Notes under the pieces: model-generated
The model's database searches: none
What the model was told of the DNA's origin: nothing
The model's input: only the letters and a program-made list of their open reading frames with translations
Shown: one piece after another, positions 5,804 through 30,484 of the stretch
Position numbering within the stretch: the first letter of the stretch is position 1
Layout of the letters: every line of letters begins with the position of its first letter
Program-made: the position numbers and the translations under genes
DNA from: a virus
Lineage: Duplodnaviria > Caudoviricetes
Virus record (IMG/VR): IMGVR_UViG_3300035670_000230
Location: 1-59,775 of that record
Strand: one strand, 5' to 3'
DNA length: 59,775 bases

Positions 5804-6930
5804 GGCAAGTAACTAAATTAGACAGGGCCAAGGCACAGATTGTGATGGACTATCCGTTCTTCAGTAGCATACTGTTCAAGCGGGGGTTACAAGAGGATCG
5901 CACCATACCAACACTTGCTGTACCACTTAAGGGTGCAATCAGATACAACCCGGAGTTCATTGAGGGTTTACCCGTACCACAGATTGTGTGGGGCCTGTGC
6001 CATGAGGTTGGTCATGTTATTGCACAACACGCCATACGACGTAAACACCGTGACCCTAAGAAGTGGAACTATGCTGGTGACGCTTGGATAAACGACATGC
6101 TCGATGATTGTAAAGTCGGTGAGCGCATACCAGACTGTGTGGACATACCCGGCTCCAAGGACAAGACGACTGAGACAATCTACGATTCCCTGCCTGATGG
6201 TGATGATGGTGGTGGAAGCGGTGGTAGCGGTGATAAGTTCGACAATGGTTTGGGAGATGATGTTGAGTACGGTGAGCAGCTAACCGAGTCGGAGATACGT
6301 GAGATCGAAGCGCAAGCCAAGGTTGATATTGCTGAAGCAGCGCAAGCAGCGAAGGCACGAGGTAAATTACCCGGTAAGTTGGCTGAGATTGTTGCAGATA
6401 TTATCAACGTCAAGACACCGTGGTATGACATCCTTGAGCGTTACATGGTTGGTATGACTAAGGGTGAATACACTTGGACTCGGCCTAACCGACGATTCAT
6501 CGGCGGCGGCATGTACTTACCATCAGCGGGCAAGATTCCAACAATGGGTGAGATTGTCTTGCAGGTTGACATCTCAGGTTCAGTAAGTCGCAAGGAGACA
6601 GACTATTACAACGGTCATATCAGGCGCATCATAGAAATGTGCAAGCCTAGCAAAGTGCATGTCATCTACACCGATACAGAAGTTCAGAGCCATGAGGAGT
6701 ATGACAATCCAGACGATGTACATATTAAACACCAGTCGGGTGGTGGCACTAGGATGGAAGCGGGCTTTGACTATATTGCAGAAAAAGGTATCCAGCCTGA
6801 TGTAGTAGTAACCCTGACGGATGGGTACGACGATTACACCGAGGACCCCGGTTTCCCCACGGTGTGGTGTGTGAGCAGTCCCAACAAGACTGTGCCTTAC
6901 GGCGAAACCATTCACTTTGAAACTAACTAA
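5800..6930 (+). CDS. DUF2201-type metallopeptidase plus vWA domain protein
   Basis: HEVGH zinc motif, 'WNYAGD..IN', MIDAS DISGS, GGGT and LTDG. Confidence 0.85.
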   Translation: MRQVTKLDRAKAQIVMDYPFFSSILFKRGLQEDRTIPTLAVPLKGAIRYNPEFIEGLPVPQIVWGLCHEVGHVIAQHAIRRKHRDPKKWNYAGDAWINDMLDDCKVGERIPDCVDIPGSKDKTTETIYDSLPDGDDGGGSGGSGDKFDNGLGDDVEYGEQLTESEIREIEAQAKVDIAEAAQAAKARGKLPGKLAEIVADIINVKTPWYDILERYMVGMTKGEYTWTRPNRRFIGGGMYLPSAGKIPTMGEIVLQVDISGSVSRKETDYYNGHIRRIIEMCKPSKVHVIYTDTEVQSHEEYDNPDDVHIKHQSGGGTRMEAGFDYIAEKGIQPDVVVTLTDGYDDYTEDPGFPTVWCVSSPNKTVPYGETIHFETN

Positions 6931-6941
6931 GGAGAGTACAC

Positions 6942-7604
6942 ATGGCACGAGTTGCTATCAGTAAGGGAGTACTGGAGTCTGTAGGAAATAACTTACTTCA
7001 GTTTAAAATGAAAGAGATCAACCAGCTTCACAACCCCACGAAGGGTATAACCTTTGCGGCTAACGAGCCATTCATTCAGGAGTACATGTGGGAAGGTAGG
7101 CTTGACCTTCAAAGTCTTTTACCGCAGTCTTGGTTGAACAAGGACAAACGTGAGGTTGGTTTCAAGTTTAACTGTGAAGACAAAAACGCAAACGTCAGTT
7201 GGTACGAAGCAGACGCACATGTGACAATCGATTTCACCACTCATCCAATTCCATACCACATGACAAACGGTCGCCAAGTTATCAAGGTGTCGCCTGAAGT
7301 CTCAGCGCAGTACGGCATGGACAAGCTAATCAAGTTCAAAGCAGATCACGAAGCAATTTATGAGCGTTACAGCAAAGTTAAAGAAGATGTTATGACCTTC
7401 TTAAATAAGTGTAAATCGCTTAACGAAGCACTGAAGCTGTGGCCTGCAATTGCTGCTTACGTTGACAAGGATTATGTGGAAAAAGTCAATGAGGTAAAAC
7501 CCAAAGGCGAACGCAGAATTAGCGAAGCAATGGATGCCCTTGCAAAAATTGATGTTGATGCGGTACAAGCGACAGCAGTTGCTGCTAGACTTGCAAACAC
7601 TTAA
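6942..7604 (+). CDS. Nmad5-like (nucleotide modification associated) protein
   Basis: C-terminal 'L..CKSLNEALKLWP...Y' motif. Confidence 0.55.
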   Translation: MARVAISKGVLESVGNNLLQFKMKEINQLHNPTKGITFAANEPFIQEYMWEGRLDLQSLLPQSWLNKDKREVGFKFNCEDKNANVSWYEADAHVTIDFTTHPIPYHMTNGRQVIKVSPEVSAQYGMDKLIKFKADHEAIYERYSKVKEDVMTFLNKCKSLNEALKLWPAIAAYVDKDYVEKVNEVKPKGERRISEAMDALAKIDVDAVQATAVAARLANT

Positions 7605-21439: not shown

Positions 21440-24400
21440 TTATGCAGTTATGCGTTCTACAAACCTACGACTACTGTCGGTAAATGGTACGCCCTCTGAT
21501 GTTTGCTCTTCACGCTTGCGTTGTTGTTCTGGAGCATTTGTCAATTCTGTCATAGGTTTACGTGGATAACCATTACGAACACGAGCCGCTTGAAGATCTA
21601 GCCATTGCCTACGCAGTTCAGCTTGTTTAGTCCTATCTTGGTCTTTAGTAGCTTCGGAATATTGACGCTTCAGGGTAGAAGAACGGCTACTAAACTTCTG
21701 TTCAAGGTCGATAGTACGGCCTTGCTGTTCACCACGAACGGATGTTTGTGTTGGGCTTAACCCTAAAGCCTGCCAGAAAGCCGTAACCTCACCAATTTGG
21801 TCGGGTTTTAGAAGAACATCACCACCACGATTAGTGAACCCCTCGCTGTATATGCGAACAGCTCGCATGGCGTCCCCAAGACCTTTTGGTAGCATTAACT
21901 CAAGACCTTTGTATTCGTCACCAGCGGCAATGTAGCTCATACCATCTGCCATCCGAGCCGCCATACCACCAGCAGGACCACCTAGGAGCGTACCAATAAT
22001 CTGGTAGGTCTTCTCACCATTGAGGTCTTTAATTTCTGTAAACGGCATTACGGACAGGGCGTTACCCATGCCAATTTTGCCTGAGAGGTTTACACCAGCT
22101 AGGTTGGGCGAACCATAAAGCACGATGTTGGATATGTCGTTGTTACCAATCGCATCACGAATCTGACCTTTAATATCAAATGGCTCGTCTTCATCTCCAA
22201 GCAAACCCTCAAGCGCCCAAGCAATAGCAGCAGCTCCCGGCATACCCATAACACCAGTAAGAACAGCAGTCTGAGCAAGGATATAACCTAGGGCCTTACG
22301 GGCAACTTGTTGTTCTGGGCCTTTTGTAAATGAGTTTTTAATCAACTTGGCAAGCAGACCCAACTGAATAAGCTGGAATTTACGGAACTGCAGGGCGACT
22401 TTACCAACGTTCGTATTGAACATACGTGGGGCGTTAAACGCCGAGTAGTCACCGTGGGTGTCGTTAATGATGCTGCTTGCGTAGTCGATGGCTACATCTC
22501 GATTGCCTGTTTTTGCAAGCTCAAGTCGATAGGCAGCAATGGCAGTTGTAAGTCGGTTGATGGCCTCAACTTTTTGTACAGCTAAACGCAAGCCCTTATC
22601 AACTTTGTTCCATGTATCAGTAACAGGACCTTGGCCTTCAATGGTAAATTCACCCATCTCTGTGGAAATGCCAATGTCAATCTGGCTGCGGTTAACCAGT
22701 GTTTCAATAACATCTTTAACATCATCAGGAACTTTAGAAAAATCAAATTGCTGGTCGAACAACTTGGCTGACTTCATTACATCTTTAAGATCGAAGTAGG
22801 CGTTGTAAAGGGCATTAGCAGATTTAGTGTAGTCGTGTCGTCCAGCCATTACAGGCAAGCTCATCATCCATGGCTGAGTAAAGTTCTGCAGGTAGTAACC
22901 CGGGCTTGACGCCAAAAAGTACACAGACGTAATACGGTTAAGTTTCTGAACTGCTTGGTTAGGTTCGTACTCCAGTGACTGGATGTAACGTCCGTTTAGC
23001 TCATTAAGAAGCTCTGACTTGCGGGTACGGTTACCACCTTGTTTGGCTTGCTTGCGCATCTTTTGCAGCGCTTCTTGTGTTCTGTTGTTGTATTGAACAG
23101 CGGCTAAGAAGTTAGCATCAGCTCGACCTTGGAGGGCAAACGATTGAAGCATGTCAATTTCACCGGGTACTGCTCGACGACGAAGCTCTGACTTTCTTGC
23201 ACTAGAATCAGCCAACGCATGGAGGTACATGTCTGTAATGATTCTACGAAGCTGGTTGGTACTTTTTTCATCCTGACCAGTTCTTTCCACCGTAGCCCGT
23301 AATTTACTTAGGGCAGCAAGCATGGTGTCTCCACCATATAGTTCGTCTTGGAACTTTTCACGCTCAAAGTAGTAAACGGCATCCTCATTAGTACCGTAGA
23401 AACCCTGATCTTGAAGCTGTTTCTGCAGGTTACGAGCCTGAATATCTGAGTCTACAAAGCTAACTTGGTAGTGGTTGGGGTCTTGCTCAAGCTCACGTAT
23501 ACGTTTTTTGTCGTCAGCAGTTTCTGCCGCACGGTACTCAGGCGATTTAGCCACCACAGCATATTTGCCTATACGCTTTAACGGAGCATAGGGTATACCC
23601 TCACGCAATTTAAACAACGTATCAAACTTTTTAAGATCAGCAATTTTTTCTTTTTGGAGTTGAGCAACTAGCTCGGCATTACCATCAGCTTGAGCGGCCT
23701 TAATCTGCGCATCGTATTCGCTGTTAGTGTAGTCAAGCAGAATCTTTTTCTTCATGGCAAGCGTATCGTCACCATGTTTGAACACAGCACGGATAAACGA
23801 CTGAGCCTCAGAAGATAAAGCGTCGAATCTGGTTTTTAGATCTGCGTCAACAGCTACGCCAGTGGTACGCCACTTAGGCGTAAAGCCCCACTTCTTGGTT
23901 CGTGTGGAGTCATAGATAAATGCGTTGACACTTTGGGATCCTGTACCACGATCTTTGTCTGGCACTAGGGCATACATGTCGGCGATGCGCTCAACTTCTT
24001 TTTCAAACTTACGGGTTTCAACCCCACGAGCCTGCATCAGTTGTTTAAATTCTGCAGCCGACCGGATACCAGATTCAACAGCACGGTTAATCAACGCCTC
24101 GGTAAATACCACACGATCAACACCCTTACGAGTCCAGTTACGGATTGTCTGGTAAATACTGTTAGAACTACTTCTGACCGTAGGCGGTATGTTATTTAAA
24201 ACATTAGCCGCAGCTCTTGCATTACGAGACCGAGCTACTGGGACGTTTTGTTGGGCTGCGGCGACGTCTCTTGCGATTGTCGTAAGGGCTTCTGCGACCT
24301 CTTTAGAAATTCCCCCCCTGCCCGCATCGACCCTCTCGGCTCTACTATCGAACGCTGGGCCTGTGAGGTTTGTGGCGTTGAAGTTTTCTGTTGTTTGGAC

Positions 24401-27400
24401 ATCTGCAAGTACCTCCTTCATAAATGCCACTGTAGCTGGCGCATTGTCGTTAAGAATTTGTTGTGTTTCAGCGGTAGCAGTAGTATACAAAGCCCATATC
24501 TGCGCAAACAACTCATGGCGAATTTGGTTTGAATCTAAACCTTTTCTTTCATTAGGGTCTAGTGGGTATGCAAAAATAACATTTGCGTCTTCGTTAATTC
24601 TGCGTAGCTTTGCAATTTCTACAGATACTGCCCCCATAGGGACAACTTTACCGTTTACAAGTTTAATATTTAACCTAGGGTCAGAAGAGTAAGTATCTTG
24701 ACCTTGTACAACTTGATCTACAGCGTGGCCTACTTCGTGAGCCATTGTCCATTTAGCAAAACCTCGATCAGCAGCAATATCTTGGCGCAAAACCACTGAC
24801 ACCTTTTGATCGATGTTGGTAATGATTCCATCCCAGTCTACATTCATGTTGTAGCTGACAAAGAACTGACCAACAGCATTAAACGCATTGCTGATCCCTA
24901 GTGAGTCATACGCACTACGAAGTTCAGCAATGCCTTCATAAACATCAGACATCTCATCAAGAGATGCGTCCTCAATAAACAAACTCTGATCGGTTCTAGT
25001 TAGCTCCTGAACCTGTTTCTCCGCACGACGCCGCATTGCGTTGACTTTTGGCTTGGCAACAGGAGTAGTAGGAGCAAACGGAGCTTCGGGCAGCACATAG
25101 ATGAAACCACCGTTGAACTCACCAAGCTGGGGTTTAATTTTATTTAAAAACAATTCGTGGCTAGTGTTGATGCAGCCATAGCTAATTCGATTGTCTTTAA
25201 CATCTGGCGAGGCTAAGCGCTCAAGGCGTCTATCATTTACGTTTCCAAGCCAAGCTGGATGCACTGCAATAATGCCTTTATTAAAACTGGTTTCGGCAAG
25301 ATCTAAACGATAGCCGCCTTCGTAGTCAGAATCTTCCACGACTTCCAAAGTAAATTTGCCTGCAGGGGTTATTTTTTTACCACCATTTAGCGAATCGCCC
25401 TGAAACGTATCTCCAATGTCTGCCCCAAAAAGCGCAGTGTCGGAAGCTAAATGTTGACCACTGGAGAAAAACATGTGGAGCTTGCCATTACGTTTGTCGG
25501 CAATCATAAACCCACGTTGTTTTTCTTTGGCTAATGGAGCGACTTGTCGGTAAATAATTTTTGCTTCTTCGCTCATTTGGTTAGCAACTTCAGTCGGAAC
25601 AGTAGCTTCTGTTTGTCTAGCTTGAATACTAGCGTAGGCTTCTTGCAGGTTAAAGTTAAACCCGTTACCAGTAATGTTGGGGTTAAATACGATTGCTGCT
25701 GCGATTGCAGCTTTAGCCAACTGCTGGATAACGCCACGAATCTTGGCGGCAACAAATTCTGCGCCTTCATTTATATAATTGGTAATGTCTTGGCTTAGTT
25801 TACTAAGGAATAGGTCAGTTCCTGCTTTATCGCCATAGTGGGACTCAAGCAACTTAGTCTGCGAGTTATTTAGTTTGGAAGTTTGCTCAAGCAGCAGTGT
25901 ACGCTGAGCCTCAGGAATAACAGTAGCTTCCACATCGATGGTACGGCTGTCATCTACGATGCGCTGTAGGTCCCGCATATTCATCTGCGCAGGATCAATT
26001 TCCACCAATGCAGCCCGTTGGGCGTCAGTTAACTTATCCCATGTGGGTAGTGCATCGTCAACTAACTGGCGAAGTTCGTTGTATTTAGTTTCAGCCGCTT
26101 CTTGTTTGGTAAGAACTACCGCAGCCTGCGTTGTCTGTGTAGACGGTGCCTTGGTTGTACCTGTAGTGGTTACTTGTGTTGATTTTCTGGCTTCTATAGC
26201 TCTAGGAGATCCAAAAATATTAAAAAGTAAATTTCCACTTTCTAAGTCGCCGGGGTAATGAACCATTAAGGTATCCCCGTCAACGGAACGTCTTTGCTTT
26301 AGGCTATGAGGCTCAGAGCTAGTTGTCCCTAGATCAAAGTCCATTTGAAAAACTTCATTATTTCTACCACGACCCATTAAAACTAAAGTGTGTCGTTTAA
26401 TTTCGCTATTAGGTAAGTCTCTAACTTCGTATTTAGCTTGTATTTCACCATCGGTAACGTTCTCAAGTGTTTTAAACTCAGAATTTTTCCTAATAGCAGT
26501 AAGTTGGCCTGAGCCTACCATTTGAAAATTTTGTGTTGAAAGTGGTTTAAATCGATTTAAGTATTCCTGTAAACGCCCAAACTGCTTATTTGGGTATCTA
26601 ACTAAACCTGAGTACGACACTCCAGCTTCTATGCGTTCACGAGATTGCGCATCTGGTTCAAACCCACGTTTTTCGTAAAACTTAACTAATTCTTCTTGGC
26701 TAAGTTTTTTACCGGACTGTGTATCAGCAGCAGCTACAACAGTTAAAGTAAGGTTATTTTTATCTGCCCAAGTTGTAATGCTGTTTAATAATTTTGAACC
26801 AGCACCCTGACCCGGATCTTTTGCAGTTAACAAGCCCAACTTCCACGTATTTGAATTTCGTGCTGGGTCGTTATGTAATTGTGCTCTAGCACCCTGTGCT
26901 TCAAATGAAAACGTATTGATTGTTGATTTAGGAAAATCAGGATCTTTTGGTCTAAGCGCAACAGCTACTCCCGGGACATCCGGTAGTACTACTTCTTCTT
27001 TTTGGGTTTGGGTTTCACCTTCTGCGGCAGGTTCTTTGGCGACCCGTACTTTTTGGCCCACTTTTTCGCCAACTCTGGCTTTTGGCTGAACAGATACTTT
27101 CTCTGTTTCTCGCTTTGGAACGGCACTTGGCTCTCCTTTAGCATCGAGGACTTCGGTTTCGATCAGACTATCAATTAATTTTTCGTCGGTATAAACACCT
27201 TGCTTCCCAAGATTAACAAAAGGAAGCCTTTCGCCATCCACTTTAATGTTAAACCCAGCAACTTGGTTTGGCTCTTCAATGCTACGAATAATAGTTAACG
27301 TAGCTGGCTGACCTTCAAAAGTTACTCGATGTTTTGTTTTGGTTTCCTTTACTTCTCGCTTTGGAACGGCATCGTCTCCCTCCTGTGTAGGCTCGCTAGT

Positions 27401-30400
27401 CCGTCTTCTAATATTAGCTTCAGATAATTTTTTAGCAGTCTCTATTCTATTTTCAAGCCTGTTGTTTAACTCAGTAACAATCTGATCTTTGAAAAATTGA
27501 TCGTCGTTAAGCTCTGCATCAATAGCCAAGGCAGATAGATGGTCTGGATTTTTGACTTGAGTTAGATCATTACCTGCATCTTCGTATGCTTTATTAGCGG
27601 CACTTAGTTGTTTTGAGGTTGGTTTGTTCCCAACTTCAATAGCATCAAGCGCTTCGATAACACGAGCATAGGCTTGATTGTTAGTTTCTACAGCGTTATT
27701 TTTTTCTTGTATGCTGTCCGAAGTACGACCCTTAGCTATGATAGAGGCGTCTTCTGCACCAAGCTCTCGTTCATCAATCCTTAGTTCTTGTACTTCTGCT
27801 TCAGTTATCTGCGCTTGATCTTGTTGGGTTCGCAAAGTTTCTATTAAATTATTCAAATACTCGGTGGACTGTTCATTTGAAAGTCTAAGTTCCACCATTG
27901 CAGCTTTGATACCATTTTCAAATTTTTGACGATCAGCCCCCATAAGAGCTTTAACTGTGCGATTCCAATCTTTTTTGATGGTATCTACGCTGCGATTAAA
28001 TCGTTTAGCTAATTGCTCTACTGTTTCATCTCGATTTTCTTGGGTAGTACCGTACATTTCAAGCACAAATTCCCGTTTGACTTTTTGTTTGTCAGCGGGG
28101 TACATACGGTTAATAGCAATTCGTAAAATTTCATCTGCAAGTTTGCTGTTGTTATCTAATGTCTGCTCGTTTGCAAGGGCAGTTACAACTTCTCGGTTAG
28201 CTGCATTAGCCTCTACAGCGTTAAACCATGCTTCTTGGAGGCTAGGGTCAAGGTCAGTAAACTTAATATTGATTTCAAATCGCTGGGCAATACCATCAAA
28301 TATCCTGCTGGCAACATCTACATCTTCTTCTGGTCTAGTGGCAGCAGGGCTAGTTCTGCCAGTTTGCGAAGCCCCTGTAGTTGGCGTTGAAGCGACTGCT
28401 CCTGTTGCTGGGGTTCCAGTTGTTGTAATCCCAGTCGTTCTACCCACCGCTGTTTGCGGGCCTTGTCCAGTTCTTGCTGTAGATTGAAGTCCACTTGGTG
28501 CTCCTGTTCGTTTAACTGCTGCAATAGCATCATCAACTTCTTCTGTGCGATTAAAAACAGCTTCAGTTTCTATAAATTGCGGTAGGGTTAACCCTAAGCG
28601 TCTAGCTACCTCTGCTCGTTGTTCATTTGGTAAAGCGTCATATTGAGCAAATACTTGTTCCGCATAATCCCTTTGTGCTGTTGGGGCAGGTTGTCCTGTC
28701 ATTAATCCTAAAGTACCAGCCGCAGGGGTGGTGGTTGGTGCTGCAGTTGTAGTTGGTGCTGCAGTTGTAGTTGGGCCTTCCGTCAATCGTTGGAAAGCTG
28801 GTGACATCTGACCAGTTAGAGCCTCGTAAATACGAGCCAATGGTTCTACAGACTTAGGTGATTTGGCCTGACCAATCTGGAACTCTAATATATTAGCGGC
28901 ATCGTTTAGGGTAGCTGCACCATCAAGCTGATACTTTTTAATGACACCATCGATACCACCAAGAATGCCCTTGGCTGAAGGCTGACCACTTAGGGGGATA
29001 CCCGAGGCTACGATTGCAGACTCAAGTTGTACACGCTCTGGGTCTTTGTTCTGGTTAGCTTGAGCAATTTCACTAACGATCTGGTTTACACGAGGCACAC
29101 CCATAACGGTCTTACCGGCGATGGTAAATGCTTGTGTGGGAACACCGGGACCGGGAGGAACTTGCCTTACACCATATGTTTGGGCTACTTGTTGTGCAAC
29201 TGCTGGGTCAATTTGTGGAGCCTGCGCTTGTGGCGGCTGAGCGCCCTGAGTTTGTTGCGCTGCGGGTTGTGCGGCACGGGCTGGTGCCGAGGGTACTCCA
29301 TACACATCACCAGCAGTTTGTGGGCGCTCGATGCCACCGGGGCCAGCAACCATTTGACCAGTCGGTTCATTAAGAGCAGCCTCCATGGATTGGCGGGTTG
29401 GTCGTTCGCCTTCTGGTCTTGTGACACCCGTAATCTGGTTAATAAGATCCTGTGTGGATAGACCAGCCCCCGGCTGGACGTTAATTCTTGAAGTATCTAT
29501 GCCTTGATTAAGCGCACCTTGGGCATCTTTGGTTAGGTCAAGCGGTTCTACGGAACGACGCCATCCACCGCCAAGGGTTCCAAAAGTTTTACCTAGGGCA
29601 AATCCACCAATGGCAGATTCTGTAAATCGCTCTCTGGCTTCAGGACTTAAAAACTCTTCTGACGGATCTACAGCCATACGACCCACTTGGCTAAGACCTT
29701 CTTGCCCTGTTTCAGAAAGAGATTCAGTAGCACCAACTCGTAAGCCAGTAACACCAGCTCTAGTTAGACCACCACGAAATCCTTTAAGTGCATCAAGCCC
29801 TTCGCCCATACTTCTAAAAGCACCAAGTCTGGCAGCAGCACCTTCAACACCTATGACATTAAGAGCGGCAAAAGGCACACCCAAAGCTGCAGCAGTTCCT
29901 AAATCGGCAGTGCCAGTTTGTTCCCGTTGTGCTTGTAGTATTTCGCCAACAGAAGATGGGTAGCTAGTAACGGCAGCACCGGTTAAAGGCGCTCTTGCAC
30001 CACCTAACAATGCACTACCACCTAACAATGCACGACCAGCTAAGCCACCAACTGCAGCTTCGGCAATATAAGGAGAACTTCCAATGGCTAAACCACCAAT
30101 ATAACTTGGCACGTCGCCAATACCACGAATGTCTTTATAGCTTTCGATACCGCCTAGTTCTCTAGCAGCTCTGGATGCTACGGCAGCTTCAAATTCGTTA
30201 GCTCGTCTACGTTCTGCAAGTGATTCTTGAGCACCTGTAAAGCCTAAACCACCAGTTGCGGCTTCGCCAAGACCATAAAAACCAGCCTGATAGCGATCAA
30301 GAGCAGCACCAAAACGCTGTCCAGTTACACCAGATTCGCTAGGCTTATATCCAAGAGTGTTAGCAATCTCAACAGGATCGGCCTGAACAAAGTCAGCATA

Positions 30401-30484
30401 TGCAGAAATTAAGTCTTCGTCGGTTTTGTCTTGCCACTGACCACCGGCTTGCCTACGAAGATCTTGGATGGTGCGAATTGGCAT
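21440..30484 (-). CDS. 3014-aa polyvalent internal virion/ejection protein
   Basis: Last large gene of the ejection cluster; contains a sigma-region-4-like HTH, GNAT, L,D-transpeptidase-like, HExxH and PLxRFG-like (YAPLKRIGKY) segments. Confidence 0.85.
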   Translation of the reverse strand: MPIRTIQDLRRQAGGQWQDKTDEDLISAYADFVQADPVEIANTLGYKPSESGVTGQRFGAALDRYQAGFYGLGEAATGGLGFTGAQESLAERRRANEFEAAVASRAARELGGIESYKDIRGIGDVPSYIGGLAIGSSPYIAEAAVGGLAGRALLGGSALLGGARAPLTGAAVTSYPSSVGEILQAQREQTGTADLGTAAALGVPFAALNVIGVEGAAARLGAFRSMGEGLDALKGFRGGLTRAGVTGLRVGATESLSETGQEGLSQVGRMAVDPSEEFLSPEARERFTESAIGGFALGKTFGTLGGGWRRSVEPLDLTKDAQGALNQGIDTSRINVQPGAGLSTQDLINQITGVTRPEGERPTRQSMEAALNEPTGQMVAGPGGIERPQTAGDVYGVPSAPARAAQPAAQQTQGAQPPQAQAPQIDPAVAQQVAQTYGVRQVPPGPGVPTQAFTIAGKTVMGVPRVNQIVSEIAQANQNKDPERVQLESAIVASGIPLSGQPSAKGILGGIDGVIKKYQLDGAATLNDAANILEFQIGQAKSPKSVEPLARIYEALTGQMSPAFQRLTEGPTTTAAPTTTAAPTTTPAAGTLGLMTGQPAPTAQRDYAEQVFAQYDALPNEQRAEVARRLGLTLPQFIETEAVFNRTEEVDDAIAAVKRTGAPSGLQSTARTGQGPQTAVGRTTGITTTGTPATGAVASTPTTGASQTGRTSPAATRPEEDVDVASRIFDGIAQRFEINIKFTDLDPSLQEAWFNAVEANAANREVVTALANEQTLDNNSKLADEILRIAINRMYPADKQKVKREFVLEMYGTTQENRDETVEQLAKRFNRSVDTIKKDWNRTVKALMGADRQKFENGIKAAMVELRLSNEQSTEYLNNLIETLRTQQDQAQITEAEVQELRIDERELGAEDASIIAKGRTSDSIQEKNNAVETNNQAYARVIEALDAIEVGNKPTSKQLSAANKAYEDAGNDLTQVKNPDHLSALAIDAELNDDQFFKDQIVTELNNRLENRIETAKKLSEANIRRRTSEPTQEGDDAVPKREVKETKTKHRVTFEGQPATLTIIRSIEEPNQVAGFNIKVDGERLPFVNLGKQGVYTDEKLIDSLIETEVLDAKGEPSAVPKRETEKVSVQPKARVGEKVGQKVRVAKEPAAEGETQTQKEEVVLPDVPGVAVALRPKDPDFPKSTINTFSFEAQGARAQLHNDPARNSNTWKLGLLTAKDPGQGAGSKLLNSITTWADKNNLTLTVVAAADTQSGKKLSQEELVKFYEKRGFEPDAQSRERIEAGVSYSGLVRYPNKQFGRLQEYLNRFKPLSTQNFQMVGSGQLTAIRKNSEFKTLENVTDGEIQAKYEVRDLPNSEIKRHTLVLMGRGRNNEVFQMDFDLGTTSSEPHSLKQRRSVDGDTLMVHYPGDLESGNLLFNIFGSPRAIEARKSTQVTTTGTTKAPSTQTTQAAVVLTKQEAAETKYNELRQLVDDALPTWDKLTDAQRAALVEIDPAQMNMRDLQRIVDDSRTIDVEATVIPEAQRTLLLEQTSKLNNSQTKLLESHYGDKAGTDLFLSKLSQDITNYINEGAEFVAAKIRGVIQQLAKAAIAAAIVFNPNITGNGFNFNLQEAYASIQARQTEATVPTEVANQMSEEAKIIYRQVAPLAKEKQRGFMIADKRNGKLHMFFSSGQHLASDTALFGADIGDTFQGDSLNGGKKITPAGKFTLEVVEDSDYEGGYRLDLAETSFNKGIIAVHPAWLGNVNDRRLERLASPDVKDNRISYGCINTSHELFLNKIKPQLGEFNGGFIYVLPEAPFAPTTPVAKPKVNAMRRRAEKQVQELTRTDQSLFIEDASLDEMSDVYEGIAELRSAYDSLGISNAFNAVGQFFVSYNMNVDWDGIITNIDQKVSVVLRQDIAADRGFAKWTMAHEVGHAVDQVVQGQDTYSSDPRLNIKLVNGKVVPMGAVSVEIAKLRRINEDANVIFAYPLDPNERKGLDSNQIRHELFAQIWALYTTATAETQQILNDNAPATVAFMKEVLADVQTTENFNATNLTGPAFDSRAERVDAGRGGISKEVAEALTTIARDVAAAQQNVPVARSRNARAAANVLNNIPPTVRSSSNSIYQTIRNWTRKGVDRVVFTEALINRAVESGIRSAAEFKQLMQARGVETRKFEKEVERIADMYALVPDKDRGTGSQSVNAFIYDSTRTKKWGFTPKWRTTGVAVDADLKTRFDALSSEAQSFIRAVFKHGDDTLAMKKKILLDYTNSEYDAQIKAAQADGNAELVAQLQKEKIADLKKFDTLFKLREGIPYAPLKRIGKYAVVAKSPEYRAAETADDKKRIRELEQDPNHYQVSFVDSDIQARNLQKQLQDQGFYGTNEDAVYYFEREKFQDELYGGDTMLAALSKLRATVERTGQDEKSTNQLRRIITDMYLHALADSSARKSELRRRAVPGEIDMLQSFALQGRADANFLAAVQYNNRTQEALQKMRKQAKQGGNRTRKSELLNELNGRYIQSLEYEPNQAVQKLNRITSVYFLASSPGYYLQNFTQPWMMSLPVMAGRHDYTKSANALYNAYFDLKDVMKSAKLFDQQFDFSKVPDDVKDVIETLVNRSQIDIGISTEMGEFTIEGQGPVTDTWNKVDKGLRLAVQKVEAINRLTTAIAAYRLELAKTGNRDVAIDYASSIINDTHGDYSAFNAPRMFNTNVGKVALQFRKFQLIQLGLLAKLIKNSFTKGPEQQVARKALGYILAQTAVLTGVMGMPGAAAIAWALEGLLGDEDEPFDIKGQIRDAIGNNDISNIVLYGSPNLAGVNLSGKIGMGNALSVMPFTEIKDLNGEKTYQIIGTLLGGPAGGMAARMADGMSYIAAGDEYKGLELMLPKGLGDAMRAVRIYSEGFTNRGGDVLLKPDQIGEVTAFWQALGLSPTQTSVRGEQQGRTIDLEQKFSSRSSTLKRQYSEATKDQDRTKQAELRRQWLDLQAARVRNGYPRKPMTELTNAPEQQRKREEQTSEGVPFTDSSRRFVERITA
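24235..24402 (-). CDS. Nested +1-frame ORF, 55 aa (MSKQQKTSTPQ...)
   Basis: AAGGAGGT 8 nt before ATG, inside a linker of the giant gene. Confidence 0.5.
   Translation of the reverse strand: MSKQQKTSTPQTSQAQRSIVEPRGSMRAGGEFLKRSQKPLRQSQETSPQPNKTSQ
26989..27126 (-). CDS. Nested +1-frame gene, 45 aa MPFQSEKQRKYLFSQKPELAKKWAKKYGSPKNLPQKVKPKPKKKK
   Basis: TAAAGGAGAG RBS plus GTG; the sequence resembles a standalone small phage protein family. Confidence 0.8.
   Translation of the reverse strand: MPFQSEKQRKYLFSQKPELAKKWAKKYGSPKNLPQKVKPKPKKKK
27107..27371. repeat. 19-bp direct repeat TTCTCGCTTTGGAACGGCA, 246 bp apart
   Basis: Copies at 27107-27125 and 27353-27371. Confidence 0.9.
28318..28494 (-). 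CDS. Nested +1-frame ORF, 58 aa (MDFNLQQELDKARKQRWVERLG...)
   Basis: CAGGAG-CACCAA-GTG; same GGAGnnCCAAGTG context as the 27126 start; amphipathic helical product. Confidence 0.6.
   Translation of the reverse strand: MDFNLQQELDKARKQRWVERLGLQQLEPQQQEQSLQRQLQGLRKLAELALLPLDQKKM

Follow-up and report, generated by a model that had tools for sequence, protein, structure and literature searches.

Three probable small genes nested out of frame in the linkers of a giant polyvalent virion protein gene of a tailed phage

The giant gene and its nested reading frames

The IMG/VR record IMGVR_UViG_3300035670_000230 (Duplodnaviria; Caudoviricetes), analysed here over its whole length of 59,775 bases (the window), is a complete phage genome with direct terminal repeats. 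Its virion module is closed by a giant gene on the minus strand (21440..30484), a single open frame that encodes a polyvalent virion protein of 3014 aa, the C-terminal region of which is DarB-like. In the present study we analysed three open reading frames (ORFs) located wholly inside this host gene, on the same strand and in its +1 frame. Comparison of the sequences with those of homologous giant genes indicates that all three are very probably real, separately initiated genes, each placed in a linker between domains of the host protein.

ORF1 (28318..28494, minus strand) starts with GTG, encodes a peptide of 58 aa (pI 9.4) and lies over the host linker at aa 664-722, a stretch that consists of 81% G/A/S/T/P/Q when read in the host frame. 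ORF2 (26989..27126, minus strand), referred to below as the MPF peptide, also starts with GTG, encodes 45 aa (pI 10.5) and covers host aa 1120-1166. ORF3 (24235..24402, minus strand) starts with ATG, encodes 55 aa (pI 11.5) over host aa 2028-2083, is rich in S, T, Q, K and P, and begins immediately behind the HExGH peptidase domain. Cys is absent from all three peptides. Each start is preceded on the minus strand by a Shine-Dalgarno (SD) site: CAGGAG (28501..28506), 6 nt before the GTG of ORF1; AAAGGAGAG (27131..27139), with GGAG 6 nt before the GTG of ORF2; and AAGGAGGT (24411..24418), 8-9 nt before the ATG of ORF3 and inside the conserved host motif FMKEV. The context GGAGnnCCAAGTG is common to ORF1 and ORF2. 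A GGAG, GAGG or AGGA motif was detected at positions -16 to -5 in 29 of the 42 large ORFs of the genome, compared with 5.7% of random positions, and the SD sites of the nested ORFs thus match the usual style of ribosome-binding site (RBS) in this phage.

An earlier note, made from the sequence of the window alone, had placed the three ORFs at these coordinates, on this strand and in the +1 frame of the 3014-aa gene. It had also described a strong SD site at normal spacing for each and a context common to two of them. We found the ORFs exactly so, with a GGAG-type motif 6-9 nt before all three starts. The note had further set the ORFs beside a helix-turn-helix (HTH), a GNAT and a HExxH domain; the positions are as described, and the first two domains are weak Pfam matches only. 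The HTH-like segment downstream of ORF1 (27992..28075, minus strand, host aa 804-831) matches DUF4817 at E=0.09, and the domain around it (aa 723-900) shows 56% identity to the nearest relative described below. The GNAT-like segment downstream of ORF2 (26612..26812, minus strand, aa 1225-1291) is recognized by Pfam at E=0.013 and E=0.091. The HEVGH zinc-peptidase motif (24725..24739, minus strand, aa 1916-1920) was used as the anchor for finding homologues; the zincin family PF07737 matches the surrounding region (aa 1916-2024) below threshold (E=0.026).

Codon-level conservation of the nested frames

The nearest relative of the giant gene is carried by the IMG/VR contig 3300042691_004233, which appears in our locus set as L086, L087 and L089 (L088 and L117 are identical copies) and is referred to here as L089. 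By blastp, its giant protein shares 34% identity with the host protein in the region aa 36-1019, and the value rises to 45% in the region aa 1444-3012. Differences between the two genes were counted by codon position over 2485 host-aligned codons, 2362 of which formed the background, and the third positions within each ORF were compared with the background by the Fisher test. Background differences were 0.438, 0.356 and 0.673 at the first, second and third host positions, respectively. Over ORF1 the corresponding values were 0.37, 0.24 and 0.19 (p=4e-14 for the third position), over ORF2 0.28, 0.21 and 0.09 (p=6e-15; an ungapped alignment of 43 codons), and over ORF3 0.43, 0.32 and 0.25 (p=1.5e-8). 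Since the third position of a host codon is the second position of a +1 codon, this decreasing order is the one expected from coding in the +1 frame. Recent recombination would leave the codon-position order uninverted.

The suppression is confined to a few places. Throughout the alignment, 24-codon windows with a third-position difference of 0.40 or less were found only at aa 643-731 (ORF1), 2018-2083 (ORF3) and 1867-1896, the last of these being an ordinary highly conserved stretch in which all codon positions are low. The encoded peptides are also better conserved than the host protein over the same DNA: 67% identity versus 49% in the host frame for ORF1, 79% versus 60% for ORF2, and 55% versus 45% for ORF3.

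The initiation signals are retained as well. In L089, ORF1 has its GTG start at the identical position, behind GGGGGAG at equal spacing; it is again 58 aa long, with its stop codon at the matching place, and a +1-frame stop immediately precedes the GTG. ORF2 of L089 also starts with GTG, behind AAAGGAGAGCC. ORF3 of L089 has a GTG exactly at the place of the ATG, behind approximately 20 identical nucleotides that include AAGGAGGT, in a gene whose background third-position divergence is 0.67. A fourth +1 ORF with an SD-like site (29185-29427, minus strand, start at 29370, 61 aa) was considered and rejected as a chance ORF, because it is not conserved in L089 (third-position difference 0.54); it thus serves as an internal negative control.

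Conservation of ORF2 and ORF3 was followed in a sample of 28 loci with 10-kb flanks, which were fetched by alignment to the peptidase domain and not by the peptides. An MPF ORF is present in 20 of the 28 giant genes, in the +1 frame in 20/20 and never in frame 0 or +2. By eye, the 21 giant-gene copies of ORF2 carry GGAG or a near variant (GGGG or AGGA in a few) approximately 6-9 nt before the start. As regards ORF3, 24 homologues have a full C-terminal part; 22 of them contain a +1-frame ATG 109 to 115 codons after the HExGH motif, and L089 has its GTG there. The ORFs of this type are 44-64 aa long and end 153 to 173 codons after the motif; a +1-frame stop lies 5 codons before the ORF3 ATG, and GGAG-type motifs are present upstream of the start in the other homologues. 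The linkage of ORF3 to the peptidase domain in 23/24 homologues proves little by itself, since a nested gene cannot leave its host. At the equivalent places in the homologues (ORF1 in L089, ORF2 and ORF3 in the homologue sets), the host frame is open.

Codon diversity along the C-terminal half, calculated for all 24 sequences, showed no more than a faint dip, at ORF3. Third positions are saturated and the peptides of different subfamilies cannot be aligned, and for this reason pairs within subfamilies were used instead. Third-position variation over ORF3 was suppressed at p<0.01 in 10 of 13 other pairs, some of which are not independent of each other. Three subfamily patterns can be distinguished among the ORF3 peptides: (i) M.KS.KP...KVLSQDKFK, (ii) MTSSLQ.RFKS.RQ and (iii) the type present in the window, MSKQQKTSTPQTS..RSIVEPRGS.

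A blind scan of 10 other giant-gene pairs, in which we searched for stretches with third-position differences below half of the background and below those of the first position, re-found the place of ORF3 in 10/10 pairs and that of ORF2 in 6/10. It also revealed two further nested +1 families, '..QEAWESGAL..' and '..PGWEQYQSK..', in the N-terminal halves of the giant genes; neither is present in the window. The few other stretches flagged by the scan contain no long +1 ORF. The occurrence of two more nested families in the relatives indicates that the trait is family-wide. The former family ('..QEAWESGALSFKE..') was detected in 14 loci (L090, L092, L094, L097, L099 and L101-L109), in the +1 frame at host aa ~450-570, and the latter in 7 loci (L089, L095 and L110-L114), in the +1 frame at host aa ~550-670, which in L089 is just upstream of ORF1.

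ORF1 is predicted by AlphaFold2 (AF2), on an alignment of two sequences, to fold into a helical hairpin with helices at residues 5-20 and 28-50 (predicted local distance difference test score, pLDDT, 85.9; 41 residues at 90 or above). A Foldseek search with the models of ORF1 and ORF2 returned nothing at E<=0.001. The ORF1 and ORF3 peptides gave no tblastn match in phage records and none in loci L001-L084, and word-index searches, which cover lengths near that of the query, returned no called protein resembling either.

These comparisons point to purifying selection in the +1 frame, combined with an open host frame, at all three ORFs, i.e. the stretches are truly dual-coding. The proposal of the earlier note that the linkers are dual-coding and that the giant gene is an operon within a gene is thereby upheld: host synonymous variation dips exactly over the three ORFs in the comparison with L089, SD site, start, stop and open +1 frame recur in homologues of all three (in one relative for ORF1), and homologues of ORF2 occur as free-standing genes elsewhere, as described in the following section.

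The MPF peptide family and its genomic contexts

ORF2 is the only member of the MPF family in the genome (family profile E=2.6e-21). In a tblastn search of GenBank phages it matched 12 records, each from residue 1. Four of these records were examined and in 4/4 the match is a complete small ORF, of 36-40 aa in S-CBS2, P-RSP2 and 023Pt_psg01; the free-standing homologue of phage C75C1 reads MPFKSEKQRKFLYANKPKLAKQWTKKYGTKKKRK. Only one of the four genes is annotated (a 39-aa coding sequence, URG13095.1, of phage 023Pt_psg01). The unannotated ones fill apparently intergenic gaps in phage C75C1 (L001:2998-3105), Prochlorococcus phage P-RSP2 (L002:3001-3123) and Synechococcus phage S-CBS2 (L003:3001-3111). 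The expectation that gene callers would miss the nested ORFs was therefore borne out, as no called protein resembles ORF1 or ORF3 and the free-standing homologue of ORF2 is unannotated in 3/4 records.

The family proved to be very large. Four called metagenomic proteins of 41-54 aa share 59-79% identity with ORF2 over up to its full length. Scanning IMG/VR by pattern gave at least 600 pattern matches and at least 433 confirmed viral contigs. A scan of viral contigs with a pattern built around the single ORF2 protein gave 11 pattern matches, 0 of them confirmed. With a profile built from 41 members, 4165 representative proteins were matched at E<=1e-3, of which 1540 reached E<=1e-10. Among the best 150 of these 4165 matches, 136 begin with M(M)PF.S..Q; the length is up to 70 aa in 73 of them, 71-150 aa in 32 and greater in 45. 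The residues M1, P2, F3, S5, Q8, P17 and A20 are invariant in the family and W23 is nearly so; ORF2 carries the N-terminal M-P-F-x-S-x-x-Q, as well as P17, A20 and W23, counted from residue 1. The AF2 model of ORF2 (pLDDT 78.9) contains helices at residues 6-15 and 17-27, followed by an extended Lys/Pro tail. No Pfam family matches the MPF peptides. The only PDB profile matches to ORF2 were repeat-design 'Cake' proteins, which we judged spurious.

The contexts of the family were determined from 81 MPF motif matches in the best 80 loci of the confirmed contigs. The peptide is free-standing (<=70 aa) in 25/81, forms the N-terminus of a longer protein in 9/81, runs off the contig end in 5/81, is nested in a frame of 240-440 codons in 36/81 and is nested in a giant frame in 6/81. 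All of the nested copies (42/42) are in the +1 frame of their host. We did not count this rule as evidence, as it probably reflects few events of origin, in the giant genes and in the scaffold-position genes, respectively. The latter are genes for proteins of ~400 aa, near the 5' end of which the MPF ORF is nested in the +1 frame (36 loci within L012-L084); in L019 the host occupies 5811-7022 and the MPF ORF 6001-6126. The L019 host is flanked by the portal gene on one side and by a virion structural gene on the other, i.e. it is at the position of a scaffold gene, and the name scaffold-position gene rests only on this placement. Neither Pfam nor PHROGs contains a family matching the ~400-aa host. 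The long Gly-rich proteins that carry the MPF module at their N-terminus show weak similarity to tape-measure families. The C-domain that elsewhere hosts the module out of frame carries it in L028 as an in-frame N-terminal fusion.

Selection on the nested peptide can also be seen in the ~400-aa hosts: over the MPF core the third-position difference is 0.18, compared with 0.48 in the rest of the gene, and it is lower in 307/307 pairs with 45-85% host identity. Of 23 distinct free-standing copies, 22 have 1-13 stops in the would-be host frame, compared with 0 in the nested copies, which indicates that the open host frame is selected and is not a by-product of composition.

The earlier note had also offered the peptides as partners of the adjacent domains. 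As far as ORF2 is concerned, this role does not hold: L086/L089 keeps ORF2 and lacks the GNAT segment, and the peptide occurs in an unrelated gene or on its own elsewhere. The part of the host missing from the L086 giant gene corresponds to 26150-27000 (aa ~1170-1440, the GNAT-like region and the stretch that follows it). The absence of this part from the nearest relative and the mosaic pattern of identities among the C-terminal halves suggest exchange of domain cassettes between giant genes.

Several further observations concern the surroundings of ORF2. A stub of 7 codons, MPFQSEK*, lies upstream of it (27349..27372, minus strand), with an ATG start and a strong SD site, AGGAGGGAG, at 27384-27376. 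A 19-nt direct repeat (27371-27353 = 27125-27107, the latter being the 5' end of ORF2) flanks a host segment of 246 nt, or 82 codons. A metatranscriptome contig of a close strain joins 27106 to 27353, with 246 nt skipped and 19 nt of ambiguity at the joint. There, the ATG of the stub would serve as the start of the full MPF ORF, and the host-domain indel falls exactly at the 5' end of ORF2 with the nested gene left whole. Finally, in seven Streptomyces phages (H6-H12) a 29-residue match to the MPF N-terminus (45% identity) falls where two annotated genes meet; in one record, one of the two is annotated as a peptidase.

Alternatives, known systems and a possible history

Several observations weigh against the presence of three real nested genes. 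(i) The single sequence is not unusual in its +1 frame: the giant gene contains 18 +1-frame ORFs of at least 30 aa (and none in +2), and 13 open +1 stretches of at least 45 codons were observed versus 12.4 +- 2.3 in 1000 synonymous-codon shuffles, which is no enrichment. With a 4-nt SD site, ORFs of at least 45 aa with SD and start show a weak excess (4 versus 1.66 +- 1.16 expected, P=0.066). (ii) ORF1 has one independent relative only, since L086-L089 and L117 represent one phage; an alignment scan of viral contigs for ORF1 homologues gave only the L089 relative, on two contigs, and a metagenome scan with the host domain adjacent to ORF1 returned one locus, identical to L089. (iii) The 20-kb loci of 8 of the 28 giant homologues contain no MPF-like sequence (one of these loci is cut at its 5' end). 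(iv) The ORF3 peptides are of low complexity, with 9-52% identity across subfamilies; three of the 13 pairs gave p>0.05 (two of them cross-subfamily and one GC-rich), and the most distant homologue, L116, has no ORF3-type start. (v) Family annotation gives the nested ORFs no function, the closest entry being phrog_1375 ('unknown function'), which matches ORF2 weakly (E=0.031) and 6 of 10 scanned MPF members at E=0.001-0.006. (vi) RNA-library data amount to 6 short contigs of one close strain, from a single metatranscriptome run, which cover 12 of 30 bins, and such contigs show no starts, transcript ends, strand or level and may derive from DNA carry-over.

The shuffle check is thus divided, because with a 5-nt SD site the same 4 ORFs stand against 0.58 expected (P=0.002), while open +1 stretches are not enriched and the 4-nt threshold leaves P=0.066. 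The single-sequence signal is modest, and it is the comparative evidence that is decisive.

The points concerning ORF1 and ORF3 leave room for an explanation in which only ORF2 is a real gene and the other two stretches are linkers conserved for some other reason, with incidental +1 ORFs. The single independent relative of ORF1, the low complexity and strong divergence of the ORF3 peptides between subfamilies, and the lack of a called or free-standing homologue of either would all be accommodated in this way. However, both stretches show the decreasing order of codon-position differences that is predicted by +1 coding alone, both keep their start, SD site and stop (ORF1 in L089, ORF3 in 23/24 homologues), ORF1 has a confident predicted helical hairpin, and the place of ORF3 was recovered in 10/10 scanned pairs. 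We therefore regard this explanation as improbable.

Conservation at the level of nucleotides, whether through RNA structure, a promoter inside the giant gene or a regulatory element of another kind, would likewise suppress synonymous variation, as functional RNA and DNA elements are known to do. Here, however, the suppression is three-periodic in the order proper to a +1 frame, start codons, stop codons and SD spacing are conserved, and ORF2 is homologous over its full length to free proteins and to N-terminal domains that start at their own Met. This makes a purely nucleotide-level cause very unlikely.

We attach equally little credence to programmed frameshifting, which might take the form of a -1 slip at the A-rich end of ORF2 into the giant frame, or of a detour of the giant polypeptide through the +1 frame. 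The end of ORF2 (...CCC AAA AAG AAG AAG TAG) is indeed A-rich and slippage-prone, and the in-frame fusion in L028 shows that module and C-domain can be joined in one frame. Nevertheless, inspection by eye of the 3' ends of the 21 giant-gene copies of ORF2 revealed no shared slippery heptamer, and the other 20 copies end with, e.g., ...AAG CGT GGG ATG TAG or ...CCG AAG GGC AAG TAG. Each ORF is also closed off by +1-frame stops a short way ahead of its start (the codon adjoining the ORF1 GTG in L089, and one 5 codons ahead of the ORF3 ATG), which makes a detour from the host frame impossible, and members of the MPF family start at Met-Pro-Phe. The view that the ORFs are chance products, in a gene where open +1 stretches with SD-like purine runs are common and meaningless, agrees with the 18 +1 ORFs, the shuffle-level open stretches and the P value obtained with the loose SD definition, and is rejected as the least credible of all by the comparative tests, in which the ORF starting at 29370 showed no conservation.

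The reading that we favour, three separately initiated genes nested in the linkers, has precedents. In tailed phages, genes nested out of frame are known as textbook rarities. In the Rz/Rz1 spanins of phage lambda and its relatives, a small gene lies inside a larger one in the +1 frame and has an RBS and a start of its own, and both products are made. ORF1-3 are like this pair in lying wholly inside a larger gene of the same strand, in the +1 frame, with their own RBS and start. They differ in that (i) they lack Cys and hence a lipobox, (ii) their host encodes a 3014-aa virion protein and is not a lysis gene, (iii) three nested genes share one host and occupy interdomain linkers, and (iv) ORF2 also occurs free-standing or as an N-terminal fusion. 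An identity as embedded o-spanins (Rz1-like) was considered for the nested ORFs and rejected, as no peptide contains a lipobox Cys.

Overprinting in phiX174 (E inside D, K and B inside A) takes place in a tiny ssDNA genome under strong size pressure; the nested genes are thought to be the younger reading, and one of them lies inside the gene for a scaffolding protein. The out-of-frame nesting is the same here, and the scaffold-gene case parallels the MPF ORFs nested in scaffold-position genes elsewhere. In contrast, the present phage has a 60-kb dsDNA genome, and at ORF2 it is the host reading, and not the nested gene, that is probably younger. Compared with the free-standing MPF proteins, ORF2 is homologous over its full length and has the same two short helices and basic tail, but it lies within another frame, with its codons chosen to keep the host free of stops.

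Short modules at protein termini that target the head are known from the capsid-targeting sequence of T4 and from the coat-binding helix-turn-helix of the P22 scaffold. The MPF module may be likened to them as a terminal helical hairpin with basic residues, found on scaffold-position and Gly-rich proteins; no sequence or fold match between them was found, and the comparison is offered as an analogy, not as membership.

A cellular example is GndA, a small out-of-frame protein reported to be encoded inside the longer gnd gene of Escherichia coli on the same strand (PMC11230408). The nested peptides resemble it as proteins of fewer than 60 aa encoded out of frame on the same strand. They differ in that GndA is cellular and a single ORF, whereas here three ORFs share a phage gene, are conserved across a phage family and include one from a large mobile family.

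The host itself qualifies as a polyvalent virion protein as this term is used by Iyer et al. 2017 (PMC5512222), where such proteins are described as multidomain giants predicted to be packaged and injected. It corresponds to that description as a virion-module giant with peptidase, acetyltransferase-like and DarB-like parts; it departs from it in the nested genes in its linkers, the words 'overlapping' and 'frameshift' having 0 occurrences in the main text of that paper. The neighbours of the giant gene in the window are a gene for an internal virion protein (phrog_511) and tail-fibre-like genes. Its C-terminal third (aa 2418-2974) matches phrog_10089 ('DarB-like antirestriction') at E=9.7e-55, and its C-terminal 615 aa match giant genes of 33 phage records (tblastn, <60% identity, >=80% coverage), many of them ~60-kb phages (podophages), with the annotations 'PLxRFG protein', 'DarB-like antirestriction' and 'DNA methylase'. 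The label PLxRFG is taken from these annotations, no search having been aimed at the motif itself. A blastn search of GenBank phages gave no close DNA relatives of the genome.

We propose that a late mRNA of the virion module would be translated both by ribosomes that begin at the ATG of the giant gene and by others that begin independently at the three internal SD sites. The internal starts would yield a helical hairpin of 58 aa from ORF1, a peptide of 45 aa with two helices and a Lys/Pro tail from ORF2, and a basic peptide of 55 aa, probably disordered, from ORF3. A free Met-Pro-Phe N-terminus seems to be required in ORF2; if so, the peptide could not serve the giant protein as an in-frame domain, its consistent absence from internal positions in proteins would be explained, and nesting out of frame would keep it co-expressed with the giant protein. 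The fusion partners of the MPF module (the scaffold-position protein and the long Gly-rich proteins) and its hosts suggest that ORF2 may be a small head-assembly or head-interior protein made together with the packaged giant protein, a role for which we see about even chances. The same role is conceivable for ORF1 and ORF3, with lower probability.

The spread of the MPF family goes far beyond that of the linker overlying it in the giant gene, and so the small gene is probably the older of the two readings and the host reading the younger. By extension, the 'linkers' of polyvalent proteins might be live small genes, across which the giant genes grew by fusing virion genes; the small genes would have survived because of their free N-terminus and late expression, and the host reading over them would be a younger, nearly unconstrained by-product, obliged only to stay free of stops. 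We consider this history possible but somewhat doubtful.

Nested +1 genes with their own RBS are already known in phages and bacteria. What is new is that the linkers of a single giant gene harbour several nested genes that are conserved, and that one of these belongs to a very large family, so far without a name, which shifts among the free, fused and nested forms. In the literature searched, we found no description of nested genes in polyvalent or giant phage proteins, although supplements may bear on this point. One gene here hosts three others and its relatives bring the number of nested families to at least 5, all invisible to gene callers, and the ORF2 family comprises more than 4000 sequence clusters without a Pfam name. 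The 'low-complexity linkers' of polyvalent and other giant virion proteins therefore need to be re-read. The nested genes also provide clear natural examples for testing methods of overlapping-gene detection, and in phage engineering the deletion of domains or the recoding of codons in such genes would silently destroy them. If the proposed history is true, fusion across small genes would be a model for the growth of giant genes, and a hidden small proteome, with at least 5 nested families in this gene family, would exist inside giant phage genes; the MPF module might then be a general tag for targeting proteins to the head or for binding DNA ends.

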